DNA from: a virus
Taxonomy: Duplodnaviria > Heunggongvirae > Uroviricota > Caudoviricetes
DNA length: 33,255 nucleotides
Strand: one strand, 5' to 3'
IMG/VR virus record: IMGVR_UViG_2737471834_000009
The position numbers and the translations under genes are program-made. Shown here piece after piece: positions 1,307-17,595 of this stretch. Below the pieces are notes generated by a model. That model was given only the letters and a program-made list of their open reading frames with translations. It was not told the DNA's origin and ran no database searches. How positions within the stretch are numbered: position 1 is the first letter of the stretch; every line of letters starts with the position of its first letter.

Positions 1307-3748
1307 TTAAAAATCAACCGGATTCGGGATCAGTTTTTGCCAGATAGCTGAAACGTATTTTGCCTGGTAACGAGCGTCATCAAGTGCATTATGGCGCTCA
1401 CCTTCGAATGGAATAGCCGTTCTGGCATCGAAGTCTATGGCTTTCCCCAGCTCAACGATTGTGCGTACATCGCGATCGTTGTAGTAACGCCACGGGCAGG
1501 GGATCCCCTGCCGTTCGTATGAACGGCGCAAAATCGTGTTGTCGAAGTTGGCTCCATTTCCCCAGACCTGAACAAAAAATTCACCGGAGTTTTCGTCGAT
1601 AAATTCCCGCAATTGTAACAGTGCATCATCTAACGGGATTTCATCGGTCATAATGGCAGATTGCGCTTCGCGTGATTGCTTAAGCCACCATTTAATGGTG
1701 TCCCGATCAATGACTCCGCCAGCAGTTTCCAGATCGATAGTCTTACTAAATTCCGGTCCCATATCTCCGGTTTGCGGATCGAAAAATATTGCACCTATTG
1801 AGATGATCGGGGCATCAGGATTTTTTCCCATGGTTTCAAGGTCGATCATTAGATGGTCACACGTCCTGCTGGTGGATGTGATTTCGTGATGACCGTTCAC
1901 CTTAATTGAGTGATCTGCCGTCTCGCCAGTTTTATTATCGCTGGCGTGATGCTGATTGCCGCCAGGGTTCTCCTTGTGTGGATGTTCAGCGCCTTCCATT
2001 TCCTCCGGATCATTTTCCTGAACTTCAACCTGATTCTCTTCATCGAATGTTTCCTGGTATGTTGCGTCGCCCATCACCGCGCCACAATCAGGGCAGTTGC
2101 CGCCACCGCTCTGACCGCAGGCGGTGCAGACTTTTTCCGGTTCCTGTTGCGCTACTGGTTCGGATTGTTTCGTTTCTGGCTCGTTTTGTAACGCATTTGG
2201 GCTGTTTTGTTCCGCTTTTTGGTCGTTCCGTTCCGATTCATGCTGGTTCTGGTTCACAGAATCGCGAGTCTGGATCCCCTTGACCCATTTCGGATCATTA
2301 GGGTCGCTAATCCCCTCAACAAATTCACCACGCGATACAGCAAGTAACTTATCGGCGTCAGGCTGGCTGATATTGGCTGCCTGCATAATTTTGTTTACTT
2401 CGTCAGCGGTGACTTTTACTTGGTTAGCGGAACTCACCTGCGACTGAGCATCCAGCGACTGCGCGTTCTGGCCATGTTCAGTTGTATCCGGTTCCATTGT
2501 TTCAGTTGTTGCCTGTTCACCTGCCATTGCGTCAGATGGTTGTGGTTTTTCTTCTTCTGTTTCACGCTCAGTAACCACCTCGCGGTTAATTTCTTCCAGG
2601 ATATCTTTTTCCGGCGTATGCCGGGCAGCTGTGAGAGTTTCCTTGCTGGGGTTCTCGTGATCAGTTTCCGTCAAATAGGCGTTGATATACCCCTGAAGGC
2701 GTCCCGGGTAGTGATAAAATTCAGGGTGTGCGCTTCGGATAAGTGCAAAAATAGCGGCGCGGGAATAGTCCAGAATACCCGGGGTTGCACGAAGTGCTGC
2801 GGACCATTCTTTGAACGGACTTTCTTTGTTCAGGACTACTTCTTTTGCGCGACGATAAACGCTGCCCGGAATTTCATAAATATTAAAATCCATCGGAAGT
2901 GTGGCTGCTGCAATCTCCACATCCAGTGTGTCGAGGGTGTGTACTAAATTCGGATTGCGATCGGTTTTGTTCCCACCGCCAGCATTAGCACCGGAAGCCG
3001 TGCGGGTGATGCGTGAAACACGATTTCCTTTCATCCACTCTTTTGTCAGCAGGCCGCGATCGGTGTAGTCAGCGTCCAGGTATGCTTCGAAAAAAGCAGT
3101 CATTAATCCCAGACTGGAATTAACGGGATTAGGGAAAACTTTGTCAGTGTCGCGAACCAGTTTGTGGAGGTCGCGAAGTTCCAGTGGGTCGAGCAGGCTG
3201 GTTTTGTGCGAAATAGCCAGGGCAGTAACTGCCGGTAGCTCTTCAGCCCGAGCGATATGTAATGCCTGAAGTTCATCTCTTGAAACGTGTGTTACTGGTT
3301 TTTCGCTGCCGTGTTGAGCAAGCCAACGGATAGCCACCTCCTGACCGGAAACTGGCAGGAGCATGCTCTCCTCAATCTCCGTCATGTCTTCGCCGTTAAC
3401 ATTGGTATTTTCGGTGCTGGCTGGTTTGTTCTGCACAGAGGGAGATGGCGCGGTGAATACCATTGTGATGCCATCTTCACCGCCTTTTTCATAGCGGTTA
3501 CAGAATTCGGTATCAAACACGCCTTCTGGTGGAAGGTCATTCACAACAGGCAAATGGACGCGAACAGGTTTTTTAAAGTCCTCTTCGTCGTAACCAGCAT
3601 CATCCATTGCGACATTACCGCGGGAAACTGCAACAGATAATTTTTTTGCTGTAGTCCAGTAAAAACCGCCTTTAATACCGAGACGTTTTCTGACTTTGTC
3701 ATTTTTGGCTTCGTAATGGAGTGCAATGTCTTGTTTGTCAGTGCTCAT
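1307..3748 (-). CDS. large exonuclease-like protein with C-terminal DnaQ-like (DEDDh) 3'-5' exonuclease domain
   Basis: C-terminus has motifs DLETMG, WGNGANFD and HNALDDARY typical of DEDD exonucleases; central CxxC...CxxC (CTACGQSGGGNCPDCG); long acidic Q/E-rich linker; RBS GAGG before ATG at 3748. Confidence 0.7.
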   Translation of the reverse strand: MSTDKQDIALHYEAKNDKVRKRLGIKGGFYWTTAKKLSVAVSRGNVAMDDAGYDEEDFKKPVRVHLPVVNDLPPEGVFDTEFCNRYEKGGEDGITMVFTAPSPSVQNKPASTENTNVNGEDMTEIEESMLLPVSGQEVAIRWLAQHGSEKPVTHVSRDELQALHIARAEELPAVTALAISHKTSLLDPLELRDLHKLVRDTDKVFPNPVNSSLGLMTAFFEAYLDADYTDRGLLTKEWMKGNRVSRITRTASGANAGGGNKTDRNPNLVHTLDTLDVEIAAATLPMDFNIYEIPGSVYRRAKEVVLNKESPFKEWSAALRATPGILDYSRAAIFALIRSAHPEFYHYPGRLQGYINAYLTETDHENPSKETLTAARHTPEKDILEEINREVVTERETEEEKPQPSDAMAGEQATTETMEPDTTEHGQNAQSLDAQSQVSSANQVKVTADEVNKIMQAANISQPDADKLLAVSRGEFVEGISDPNDPKWVKGIQTRDSVNQNQHESERNDQKAEQNSPNALQNEPETKQSEPVAQQEPEKVCTACGQSGGGNCPDCGAVMGDATYQETFDEENQVEVQENDPEEMEGAEHPHKENPGGNQHHASDNKTGETADHSIKVNGHHEITSTSRTCDHLMIDLETMGKNPDAPIISIGAIFFDPQTGDMGPEFSKTIDLETAGGVIDRDTIKWWLKQSREAQSAIMTDEIPLDDALLQLREFIDENSGEFFVQVWGNGANFDNTILRRSYERQGIPCPWRYYNDRDVRTIVELGKAIDFDARTAIPFEGERHNALDDARYQAKYVSAIWQKLIPNPVDF

Positions 3749-3877
3749 TGTTTTTAACCTCAACTAAGATTAAAATTCCTCCGGAATGATGAATAAATGT
3801 CCCAGGTTCATCATTCTGGCCTGCACTGAGTGCAGGCCTTTTTACCATTCAGATTTCATCTTTTAGTTCTGTCCCAA

Positions 3878-4123
3878 TCAGTGAGGCCAGATACATGTCT
3901 TTTTTTCTGCAGGCAGATTCTTAATGATATGCACCAGACACATTTTTTTAACACCATCGTTAAGTGTTTTAACATTTCCTGAGAAACCGTAGATATCAAC
4001 CACAGTGAATGGGGTTTCTTTATTTTCTGTCTTAATTACGTAGCCAATACGCTTTTCTTCAAGATTAACCTCGTGAACAATATTATCAGCAGTAACAGTA
4101 GTGACTTCATAACTGGTAATCAT
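3878..4123 (-). CDS. hypothetical small protein, distal gene of the dicB operon
   Basis: 81-aa ORF from internal ATG preceded by AAGGAGA; position downstream of ydfD. Confidence 0.45.
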   Translation of the reverse strand: MITSYEVTTVTADNIVHEVNLEEKRIGYVIKTENKETPFTVVDIYGFSGNVKTLNDGVKKMCLVHIIKNLPAEKKTCIWPH

Positions 4124-4753: not shown

Positions 4754-4811
4754 AAAAAGGGCGGCAGAGCAGTCACGGAGTAAAACTGATACCGCCAAAC
4801 GTCACCAGAAA
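4754..4811 (-). ncRNA. dicF: DicF small RNA (ftsZ-targeting sRNA) with intrinsic terminator
   Basis: Minus-strand sequence TTTCTGGTGACGTTTGGCGGTATCAGTTTTACTCCGTGACTGCTCTGCCGCCC followed by a T-run; GGCGG...CCGCC terminator hairpin; located between ydfC and dicB as in the Qin prophage. Confidence 0.8.
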
Positions 4812-6267: not shown

Positions 6268-6627
6268 ATGAACATCAAACCTATTCGTACAGAGCAAGAT
6301 TATGAAGCCGCGTTGCGTGCTGTTGAACCCATGTTCGACAATGAGCCCGAAATTGACACGCCTGAGGGGGATTTTTTTGAGGTGATGTGTTTGCTAATAG
6401 AGGAATATGAAAAAAAACATTATCCCATTGAGCCACCATCCCCAATTGAAGCTATAAGATTTCGCATGGAACAGCAGGGGCTGACTGTGAAAGATTTGGA
6501 ACCCGCAATTGGGAAAAAAAATCGGGTTTATGAGGTGTTGAATGGTACCAGAAGCCTTACGTTACCAATGATTCGCCGTCTTCATAATCAATTTGGTATC
6601 CCCCTGGAAAGCCTGGTTGGATTATAA
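6268..6627 (+). CDS. HigA-like antitoxin, HTH XRE family
   Basis: 119-aa product with C-terminal helix-turn-helix (LTVKDLEPAIGKKNRVYEVLNGTRSLTLPMIRRLHNQFGIP); starts 3 nt after the toxin stop. Confidence 0.75.
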   Translation: MNIKPIRTEQDYEAALRAVEPMFDNEPEIDTPEGDFFEVMCLLIEEYEKKHYPIEPPSPIEAIRFRMEQQGLTVKDLEPAIGKKNRVYEVLNGTRSLTLPMIRRLHNQFGIPLESLVGL

Positions 6628-10731: not shown

Positions 10732-11088
10732 ATGGAAATAAAACCAGAAGATGAGTTAAGCAATATCGTTTTATTTCCGGTAAAAGAGGATGACCCTCGT
10801 AATCAGGTTAATTTTCTTTATGAGCCATCGGAAAGACCATATTGCCATCACGCTTCTGTCCGGGTTGACGAAAAAGAGCGTCAGGTCCGCTGTAAAATCT
10901 GCGGTGCAGTTGTGGAGCCATTTGACTGGATGCTCTCTGTGGCGAAAAGAGAAACCAGACTGGCAGATGATGTAAGGCTATTGCGCCAGGAGGAACAGGA
11001 AAGACGGAAAAATATAGAAAAGTTAATTCAGATTGAGCGTAACGCGAAAGCGCGGATACGCAGGGTGACAAAATCCAGAACTGAATAA
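10732..11088 (+). CDS. hypothetical protein (CHH...CxxC motif, basic C-terminus)
   Basis: 118-aa ORF MEIKPEDELSNIVLFPV... preceded by the junction element AAAGGAGAGG. Confidence 0.55.
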   Translation: MEIKPEDELSNIVLFPVKEDDPRNQVNFLYEPSERPYCHHASVRVDEKERQVRCKICGAVVEPFDWMLSVAKRETRLADDVRLLRQEEQERRKNIEKLIQIERNAKARIRRVTKSRTE

Positions 11089-13330: not shown

Positions 13331-13358
13331 AACCCCGGATTGATGGTCCGGGGTTTTT
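13331..13358 (+). terminator. intrinsic terminator (CCCCGGA-loop-TCCGGGG followed by T5)
   Basis: Perfect 7-bp stem with a T-run; A-run upstream, so it may act in both directions. Confidence 0.7.
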
Positions 13359-13639
13359 GAAGGAAACAAAACAGAAACAACAATTGCCGTTACCTGTTGT
13401 TACCATGGCAAGTAAACGTATCTCAGGCGAGCGCATTGCGCCGTTCTGACGCAGATAAATTAGCCTGGATAGAAGGTGCTGGCAATAAAAAATAGCGTTT
13501 TCTTATCGGTGTCGGTAAGATTGCTGCGGGTGCTTGAGGCTGTCTGCCTCAGGCATGCCACTGTAAGGCAGACAGAGAAAAGCCCCAGTTAACATTATGC
13601 GTCCGGCAAGACGCTTAACATTAATCTGAGGCTCAATCT

Positions 13640-13852
13640 ATGAACGGCAAATCTAGGTTAGCCTCTTACGCGCCGAAAGGCAAGGAGAAGCAGGCTATGA
13701 AGCAGCAAAAGGCGATGTTAGTCGCCCTGATCGTCATCTGTATTACCGTCATTGTGACGGCACTGGTAACGAGGAAAGACCTCTGCGAGGTACGAATCCG
13801 AACCGGCCAGACGGAGGTCACTGTCTTCACAGCTTACGAACCTGAGGAGTAA
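13640..13852 (+). CDS. Mok-like reading frame (in-frame N-terminal extension of Hok)
   Basis: 70-aa ORF containing the hok frame, as in chromosomal mok/hok loci. Confidence 0.55.
   Translation: MNGKSRLASYAPKGKEKQAMKQQKAMLVALIVICITVIVTALVTRKDLCEVRIRTGQTEVTVFTAYEPEE
13697..13852 (+). CDS. hok: Hok/Gef family type I toxin
   Basis: 51-aa product MKQQKAMLVALIVICITVIVTALVTRKDLCEVRIRTGQTEVTVFTAYEPEE is near-identical to remembered HokD/RelF; mRNA leader has the tac-like hairpin GCTTGAGGCTGTCTGCCTCAGG. Confidence 0.85.
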   Translation: MKQQKAMLVALIVICITVIVTALVTRKDLCEVRIRTGQTEVTVFTAYEPEE

Positions 13853-17285: not shown

Positions 17286-17361
17286 GGCCCTTTAGCTCAG
17301 TGGTGAGAGCGAGCGACTCATAATCGCCAGGTCGCTGGTTCAAATCCAGCAAGGGCCACCA
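17286..17361 (+). tRNA. tRNA, anticodon CAU (ileX/ileZ-like tRNA-Ile2; tRNA-Met not excluded)
   Basis: Manual cloverleaf: acceptor GGCCCTT/AAGGGCC, anticodon loop CTCATAA, T-loop TTCAAAT, CCA encoded; close to remembered ileX. Confidence 0.8.
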
Positions 17362-17362
17362 A

Positions 17363-17439
17363 CCGCCACTAGCTCATCAGGAAAGAGCGTCAACCCTTTA
17401 AGTTGAGTGTGCGAGGTTCGAGTCCCCGGTGGCGGTCCA
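17363..17439 (+). tRNA. atypical tRNA, anticodon loop CCTTTAA (anticodon UUU, Lys-like, with C at position 33)
   Basis: Manual cloverleaf: acceptor CCGCCAC/GTGGCGG (C1-G72), D-loop with GG, T-loop TTCGAGT, CCA encoded; isotype uncertain. Confidence 0.55.
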
Positions 17440-17441
17440 GT

Positions 17442-17517
<76 letters not shown>

Positions 17518-17520
17518 TAT

Positions 17521-17595
<75 letters not shown>

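Follow-up and report, generated by a model that had tools for sequence, protein, structure and literature searches.

Two adjacent hairpins between the racC homologue and the exonuclease VIII-like gene of a Rac-like prophage probably form the body and the terminator of a still unannotated cis-antisense sRNA, about 62 nt long and comparable in type to P22 sar and lambda OOP; we place the likelihood of this reading at roughly 60%. The window, meaning the whole 33,255-nt stretch of DNA analyzed, is IMG/VR virus record IMGVR_UViG_2737471834_000009. Both hairpins, their conservation with selection acting on the plus strand, and an abundant RNA 3′ end within the U-tract of the E. coli K-12 homologue are demonstrated in the sections that follow. 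That the two hairpins belong to one discrete antisense sRNA is suggested by this abundant 3′ end, by the covariation of hairpin 1 and by a promoter-like element upstream.

The racC-exonuclease spacer

On its minus strand the window carries the early-left genes of a lambdoid, Rac-like prophage: reading leftward, DicF, dicB, a DUF1482 gene, the racC homologue, the exonuclease VIII-like gene, a DUF4224 gene and an integrase gene. The features relevant to the analysis are as follows.

1307..3748, minus strand: exonuclease VIII-like gene (exo), ATG at 3748..3746, Shine-Dalgarno (SD) sequence GAGG at 3761..3758
3741..3778, no strand assigned: conserved island of 38-40 nt, GTGCTCATTG(T)TTTTTAACCTCAACTnAGATTAAAATT, spanning the exo start codon, its SD sequence and the putative antisense promoter
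3748..3753, plus strand: putative -35 element TTGTTT, read from the sequence, whose first T is the complement of the A in the exo start codon
3771..3776, plus strand: putative -10 element TAAAAT, read from the sequence
3781..3819, plus strand: hairpin 1 in the minimum free energy (MFE) fold, arms CCGGAATGATGAA (3781-3793) and TTCATCATTCTGG (3807-3819), loop 3794-3806
3783..~3845, plus strand: predicted antisense sRNA of ~62 nt (62-64), 3′ end placed by K-12 homology and 5′ end by the promoter-like element only
3818..3838, plus strand: hairpin 2, stem GGCCTGCAC (3818-3826) and GTGCAGGCC (3830-3838), loop TGA at 3827-3829
3839..3843, plus strand: U-tract (T5), directly 3′ of the hairpin 2 stem
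3878..4123, minus strand: racC homologue, NCBIfam PRK09790 (residues 1-76 of 91), 81 aa as read
4759-4810, minus strand: DicF, Rfam match RF00039

By comparison with K-12 RacC, the racC homologue is frameshifted at an A7 run (3900-3906), and the K-12-like C-terminus goes on in the -1 frame as far as the ancestral stop codon at 3851..3849, 5 nt from the plus-strand U-tract. Because positions 3852-3877 are thus the frameshifted tail of racC, the true racC-exo spacer is 3749-3848. The first-pass annotation had let the gap run to 3877 and had set it between the exonuclease gene and a dicB operon; the minus-strand operon is real, its gene upstream of the gap is racC rather than dicB, and the larger extent of the gap is not upheld.

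The A-run itself differs in length between the window (A7) and K-12 (A8). On the minus strand the window reads GAA AAA AAG ACA at 3897-3909, which places A_AAA_AAG, a dnaX-type -1 frameshift heptamer, in the zero frame of racC, and the -1 frame gives back the K-12-like C-terminus KKDMYLASLIGTELKDEI followed by the stop codon. The run could be scored at 131 loci: it has 8 A in 111 of them, 9 in 3, and 7 in 17, the last including complete chromosomes. Sequencing error, phase variation or programmed slippage could each be the cause.

Residues 1-615 of the exonuclease VIII-like product correspond to NCBIfam PRK09709 (exodeoxyribonuclease VIII), and Pfam Exonuc_VIII is also matched. This gene is the downstream cistron and a likely cis target of the putative antisense RNA. 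The protein is chimeric: residues 1-615 are the RecE/ExoVIII N-terminal part, and residues 632-803 form an Rv2179c-like DEDD 3′-5′ exonuclease domain, which stands in place of the RecE nuclease domain. No recT follows the exonuclease gene.

Geometry and statistical significance of the hairpins

Two hairpins had been noted in the gap from the first, and both are present in the sequence, at 3781-3819 and 3818-3838, far beyond what chance would produce. The upstream one had been described as a 12-bp imperfect inverted repeat; the repeat is real, and its exact arms make 13 pairs, one of which is G3783·T3817 (G·U on the plus strand). Hairpin 2 has a perfect stem of nine pairs, seven of them G-C, closed by a loop of three. 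The two hairpins abut so closely that G3818 and G3819 are contested by both. Folded as a 67-nt plus-strand RNA, the segment reaches -30.9 kcal/mol (z = -5.4), and none of 200 shuffles was equally stable; its minus-strand counterpart reaches -27.7 kcal/mol (z = -5.3).

In a generic terminator scan, hairpin 2 ranks first among the terminator-like sites in 9 kb, the total of such sites being no greater than in shuffled sequence. A stricter test, requiring a perfect 9-bp stem with at least six G-C pairs and at least five T in the next eight bases, returned two sites on both strands of the 33-kb window, compared with 0.01 per dinucleotide shuffle. On the minus strand, the hairpin 2 stem is followed by AGAAUGAUGAACC in the window and by AUGAACAGUGUG in K-12, neither of which is a U-tract, and the scan called no minus-strand terminator-like site in the gap of either sequence. 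The earlier statement that hairpin 2 lacks a U-tract on the coding strand is therefore correct.

The other site returned by the strict test is a minus-strand hairpin at 13331-13355 (AACCCCGGA...TCCGGGGTT, then TTTGTTTG). It is located about 170 nt from an Rfam match to the sok antitoxin (111.7 bits, 13528-13702, plus strand), which implies a hok/sok-type module within the prophage.

The hairpins are retained in three diverged spacer alleles

Over this region the window is at most ~85% identical to any complete E. coli genome. The element is nonetheless widespread: a 151-nt query matches 1,745 of 5,426 complete E. coli genomes, mostly via a 38-nt island alone, which has the exo start codon at one end and TTAAAATT at the other. 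IMG/VR was scanned with a pattern that includes the motif TAAAAT; the hits and further loci make up a set of 133 loci with 60 distinct sequences. The spacers fall into three alleles: the window type, a type A common in E. coli and Shigella, and the type of the K-12 Rac prophage. Wider searches with RacC found 10 loci in genome contigs, all from Escherichia, Shigella or likely misbinned MAGs, and 80 loci in viral contigs, in which RacC is 99-100% identical to that of K-12. Because these searches gave only close relatives, the diversity available is limited to the three spacer alleles.

The three alleles are strongly diverged, yet each has a hairpin 1 abutting a G+C-rich hairpin, with a T-rich tract 3′ of it on the plus strand (TTTTTACC, TTTCTTTTTTT and ATTTCTTT, three of three alleles). 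Pairing in hairpin 2 is 99.6% over 25 distinct variants, as against 18-46% for slid controls, and the helix is recovered by RNAalifold. Two compensatory pairs are found in it (A-U to U-A and A-U to G-C), and the observed covariation score was reached by none of 500 shuffles. The core GCCTGC/GCAGGC is invariant, and the stem outside it covaries. Hairpin 1 shows a compensatory change from A-U to G-C, with a G·U intermediate, at pair 17-48 (alignment A2) among window-type and type-A sequences, as well as G·U variants at pair 22-40. Its loop region GATGAATAAATGTCCCAGGTT is identical in these two alleles while the stems differ. The K-12 allele has a different, irregular hairpin at the same place, which does not align column by column with the others. 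A single-stranded seed common to all three alleles was not found, hairpin 1 and its loop differing entirely between K-12 and the window, and the putative plus-strand RNA has almost no 5′ single-stranded tail.

The loop of hairpin 2 is hypervariable (TGA, AGT, ACT, GTT, ACA and GTC; CCATA, TATGG, TCATA and GCATA; positions 3827-3829 of the window and 6469-6473 of L002, the K-12 locus). Some loops are reverse complements of each other (AGT/ACT and CCATA/TATGG) in sequences that are otherwise the same, the signature of hairpin-mediated loop inversion by template switching in DNA. At some loci (L057 and L133) a type-A exo 5′ end is joined to a K-12-type spacer. Such joints suggest that recombination may occur within the invariant island, making it a mosaic junction. 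A Rac-type racC-exo-kil arrangement with a type-A-like spacer is found in PP818812.1 (L136), labeled Actinobacillus phage vB_Apl-pPE4, and Rac-type racC-exo-kil is also present in MAGs labeled Candidatus Nanosynbacter and Proteobacteria (L007 and L010); the host labels or binning of these three look doubtful.

Stem variation indicates selection on the plus-strand RNA

Substitutions that alter only one side of a stem discriminate between the two strands, a change from C to U being tolerable just on the strand in which G·U results. All of those observed are G·U on the plus strand, and hence A·C on the minus strand, with none reversed. They affect pairs 52-72, 58-66 (in two allele lineages) and 59-65 of hairpin 2, and pairs 17-48 and 22-40 of hairpin 1. 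By our own estimate, about six independent one-sided events would have a probability of about 1 in 64 if the strands were equivalent. Since such changes keep pairing only on the plus strand, selection acts on the plus-strand RNA. This tells against the first-pass proposal of a processing or stability element in the minus-strand mRNA.

The K-12 homologue of hairpin 2 precedes an abundant RNA 3′ end

The Term-seq data for E. coli K-12 MG1655 include a curated plus-strand 3′ end at position 1417486 of NC_000913.3 (Adams et al. 2021, PMC7815308, supplementary file 1). In the part of that file considered here, the end has 185,664 reads in LB at OD 0.4 and 146,140 reads in a second sheet, is classed as antisense to racC, and has the end sequence ...TAGCCTGCGCCATACGCAGGCTATTTCT; the name racC appears three times in the three sheets (PMC7815308). 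For comparison, the same sheet gives 66,697 reads for sokC, 103,354 for the ftsO end and 6,222 for sgrS, and among the plus-strand ends in the portion of the table examined only a tRNA end exceeds 1417486 (PMC7815308).

In L002, position 1417486 is position 6487, which lies within the U-tract of the K-12 homologue of hairpin 2, 5 nt after the stem. A 3′ end range of 1417486-1417489 had been predicted from the K-12 sequence before the Term-seq data were consulted, and the mapped end falls inside it. Hairpin 2 with T5 is a canonical plus-strand intrinsic terminator, the in vivo end being that of the K-12 homologue and not of the window allele. The first-pass annotation had recognized the shape of a plus-strand terminator inside a minus-strand operon, and had made its reading depend on transcript ends at one of the hairpins; on the plus strand of K-12, a strong end of this kind exists at the homologous hairpin 2.

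All of the expression data derive from K-12 or O157 alleles. For O157, Table S1B of the Hfq CRAC study, which concerns the most enriched intergenic regions, has in row 64 the entry "int_1895 recC...racC", where recC presumably stands for recE (Tree et al. 2014). Reads of this row occur in one column only in four of five pairs (2017, 247, 1374 and 5561), the columns not being assignable to a strand (Tree et al. 2014). The locus is not mentioned in the Pas sRNA preprint or in the main text of Tree et al. 2014, and the Cappable-seq, SMRT-Cappable-seq and TERMITe supplements gave no match for it. Literature searches returned no paper text that names or describes a racC-recE plus-strand RNA. Rfam 15 has no gathering-threshold match in the gap, the matches up to E = 10 being eukaryotic snoRNA and lncRNA noise only. 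The K-12 RefSeq record annotates RalA and nothing in the racC-recE gap.

A conserved island contains a putative antisense promoter

Nothing else in the locus is as well conserved as the island at 3741..3778, which is also the only part of the 151-nt query that matches K-12-type alleles, with 94.9% identity in ~1,468 E. coli records. In six allele representatives the island does not vary, with the exo 5′ end on one side and the spacer on the other both diverged, and the stretch from TAAAAT to hairpin 1 is the most variable. Its promoter-like element, TTGTTT and TAAAAT, lies about 7 nt upstream of hairpin 1; 17 nt separate the two motifs in the window, and 18 nt do so in K-12. The element matches 8 of 12 consensus positions, which is below the scan threshold of 9 of 12, and it was not called. 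The presence of TAAAAT in the 133 loci is circular, as the motif belongs to the retrieval pattern, and independent support comes from the BLAST island. In every allele a G after a pyrimidine occurs 7-8 nt downstream of TAAAAT, and in the window and type-A alleles the hairpin 1 stem starts with this G. The transcription start site is accordingly placed, as a prediction from the sequence, at about G3783, at the base of hairpin 1. Conservation of the island could also be due solely to the ribosome-binding region of the exonuclease gene.

Within K-12 recE, the scan found no plus-strand promoter-like site matching at least 9 of 12 positions, and three further plus-strand terminator-like sites are located upstream. 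With no better promoter-like site in recE and three earlier terminator-like sites, a long antisense transcript is argued against.

Proposed action of the antisense RNA

The 5′ end, the promoter, the discrete size of the RNA and the way it would regulate racC and the exonuclease gene are what we infer, and together they give the following model. Transcription would start at about G3783 from the sigma-70-type promoter TTGTTT (3748-3753), 17 nt, TAAAAT (3771-3776), which would sit over the exonuclease start codon and Shine-Dalgarno sequence. The nascent RNA would fold at once into hairpin 1 and end at hairpin 2 and U5. Made in the lysogen, it would most likely pair with the racC-exo intercistronic RNA of any early-left transcript, to which it is fully complementary by construction. 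The duplex would be cut or destabilized, as by RNase III in the case of lambda OOP and cII, or in the manner of P22 sar, and polymerase at the convergent promoter would probably also interfere with incoming transcription. The net outcome would be that the exonuclease is kept low, or that the ratio of RacC to exonuclease is set. The ribosome-binding site should not be occluded directly, because the duplex is predicted to end about 22 nt upstream of the exo SD sequence. The main role of the RNA might lie elsewhere, given its abundance in K-12 under repression of the sense operon.

RacC and RecE have been reported to be a blocker and a trigger, respectively, of retron toxin/antitoxin defense, and sbcA is listed as a synonym for both racC and recE. 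The sbcA locus is a classical one, and some of its cis-acting mutations activate recE. These retron roles and the shared synonym make control at the racC-recE junction biologically plausible. A more speculative proposal, which we consider unlikely, is that the RNA is a lysogen-expressed gatekeeper of racC-recE, keeping exonuclease VIII silent or setting the RacC-to-RecE ratio by pairing and by its convergent promoter, and that some sbcA mutations might destroy the RNA or its promoter.

If the antisense RNA is confirmed, the K-12 Rac prophage carries an abundant antisense sRNA absent from RefSeq and Rfam, located directly before recE, known from RecET recombineering and the classical sbcA phenotype, and beside racC, a reported anti-retron blocker. 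It would add an extra RNA layer over prophage recombination and anti-defense genes and would offer a testable account of recE silence. It would also show that unclaimed sRNAs are to be found in the published tables of Term-seq and Hfq-CRAC studies.

Relation to known antisense and prophage RNAs

The racC-exo element has no sequence kinship to sar, OOP, FinP or RalA and no Rfam match; its closest counterparts are P22 sar and lambda OOP. P22 sar is reportedly an antisense RNA of ~68 nt with its own promoter in the arc-ant spacer. The RNA proposed here likewise belongs to the intercistronic spacer of a phage operon, is transcribed towards the operon promoter and can base-pair with the spacer RNA, its own promoter being putative. 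The flanking genes are different, however, there is no sequence similarity, and sar covers the ant ribosome-binding site, from which the predicted duplex at exo stays clear by the distance given above.

Lysogens of lambda make OOP, a 77-nt antisense RNA that has a promoter of its own, ends at an intrinsic terminator and forms with the mRNA a duplex that RNase III cuts. OOP can pair with the 3′ end region of cII, the upstream cistron, and with the spacer that follows, a layout similar to that of an RNA opposite the racC-exo spacer. OOP overlaps the cII coding sequence by ~50 nt, whereas the RNA here ends 2-5 nt before the racC stop codon and is confined to the spacer; OOP also belongs to the pR operon of lambda rather than to the early-left operon, and the two share neither sequence nor an Rfam family.

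FinP of the F plasmid consists of two stem-loops with a very short spacer, the second being the terminator, and is fully complementary to a 5′ UTR. The racC-exo element has the same architecture of two stem-loops with the terminator second, but FinP requires FinO and reaches over the ribosome-binding site of traJ, whereas the duplex here is predicted to be clear of the exo SD sequence.

The nearest relatives by position are RalA and DicF. RalA is a plus-strand sRNA, antisense within the minus-strand early-left region of the K-12 Rac prophage, ~3.7 kb away, and is reportedly Hfq-dependent. It is 179 nt long, overlaps rcbA, acts as a type I antitoxin by pairing with ralR through 16 nt, and is annotated, whereas the racC-recE RNA is unannotated and has no toxin ORF. 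DicF, a prophage sRNA of the same early-left region, is produced by processing and has several trans targets, the ftsZ mRNA among them. In contrast to the racC-exo element, it is encoded on the sense strand and processed from the operon transcript, and it is unrelated in sequence and structure.

Alternative explanations

An Hfq-associated prophage sRNA that acts in trans on host or other prophage mRNAs, its antisense position being incidental, is a reading that we consider unlikely. It would fit an RNA that is abundant in K-12 lysogens with a repressed cis target operon and that has an intrinsic terminator with a U-tail, and it would fit both the place of the racC-flanking region among the most enriched Hfq-CRAC intergenic regions of O157 (where reads of either strand are possible) and the shared loop region of the window-type and type-A alleles. 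A trans-acting RNA would be expected to keep a seed, however, and none is kept across the three alleles, the sequence of hairpin 1 being different in K-12; the U-tail of the window is merely 5 U, and complementarity elsewhere in the window is limited to chance-level 9-12-mers. A trans-acting role and the cis model are not mutually exclusive. There is a smaller chance that hairpin 2 is an insulating terminator against pervasive antisense transcription from exo, or against read-in from the attachment site, with hairpin 1 incidental and no dedicated sRNA. Antisense 3′ ends are common in Term-seq data, and the putative promoter is weak by consensus. The read count, as far as the Term-seq sheet goes, is nevertheless very high for a pervasive transcript, exceeding that of sokC and of ftsO, and K-12 recE has no plus-strand promoter-like site and has the three earlier plus-strand terminator-like sites. 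Furthermore, hairpin 1 is kept with plus-strand-specific G·U pairs and a compensatory pair, and the exo 5′ coding sequence varies among alleles while the island does not. The first-pass suggestion that hairpin 2 blocks antisense transcription thus survives insofar as it terminates a plus-strand RNA; mere blocking is disfavored by the abundant end, the covariation of hairpin 1 and the promoter-like element.

The mRNA necessarily bears hairpins complementary to those of the antisense RNA, which fold nearly as well on the minus strand (energies above) and begin ~10 nt past the ancestral racC stop codon in an operon whose DicF is made by processing. They might stabilize the 3′ end of racC, or provide an RNase III site that uncouples racC from exo. 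This is very improbable in our judgment, in that all six or seven one-sided stem changes are A·C mismatches on the minus strand, the conserved T-tract works only on the plus strand, and the mapped K-12 RNA end is a plus-strand end. A function at the level of DNA, whereby the palindromes would be a site of protein binding, a cruciform or a junction for recombination or mosaicism, would accommodate the hairpin 2 loops in both orientations (AGT/ACT and CCATA/TATGG, as from hairpin-mediated template switching), the recombinant loci that join one exo allele to another spacer allele (L057) and the invariance of the core. It leaves unexplained the strand specificity of the T-tract, the plus-strand G·U bias and the Term-seq 3′ end, and the stem outside the core covaries instead of being conserved; we regard it as scarcely credible. 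The preferred reading remains the cis-antisense sRNA.

Rejected candidates and a further feature of the prophage

Several other assignments were considered and rejected. For a type I toxin-antitoxin system, the candidate toxin would be a minus-strand ORF of 36 aa (3738-3848), which is hydrophilic and is absent from the K-12 allele, where an unrelated ORF of 20 codons is present. A plus-strand RNA that is itself coding was dismissed: the sole ATG frame in the window overruns the terminator, and K-12 has an unrelated frame of nine codons that lacks a Shine-Dalgarno sequence. A nut site or an HK022 put site does not fit a location ~4 genes past the operon start, with no boxA-like sequence in or near the gap (the nearest is at 10880) and with structural selection on the wrong strand. 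A bidirectional intrinsic terminator would need a U-tract after the stem on the minus strand, which has none. HnrS, a multicopy prophage sRNA of 66 nt, was dismissed since its gene lies among late genes. Elsewhere in the prophage, a cluster of four tRNA genes is present on the plus strand at window positions 17286-17592.
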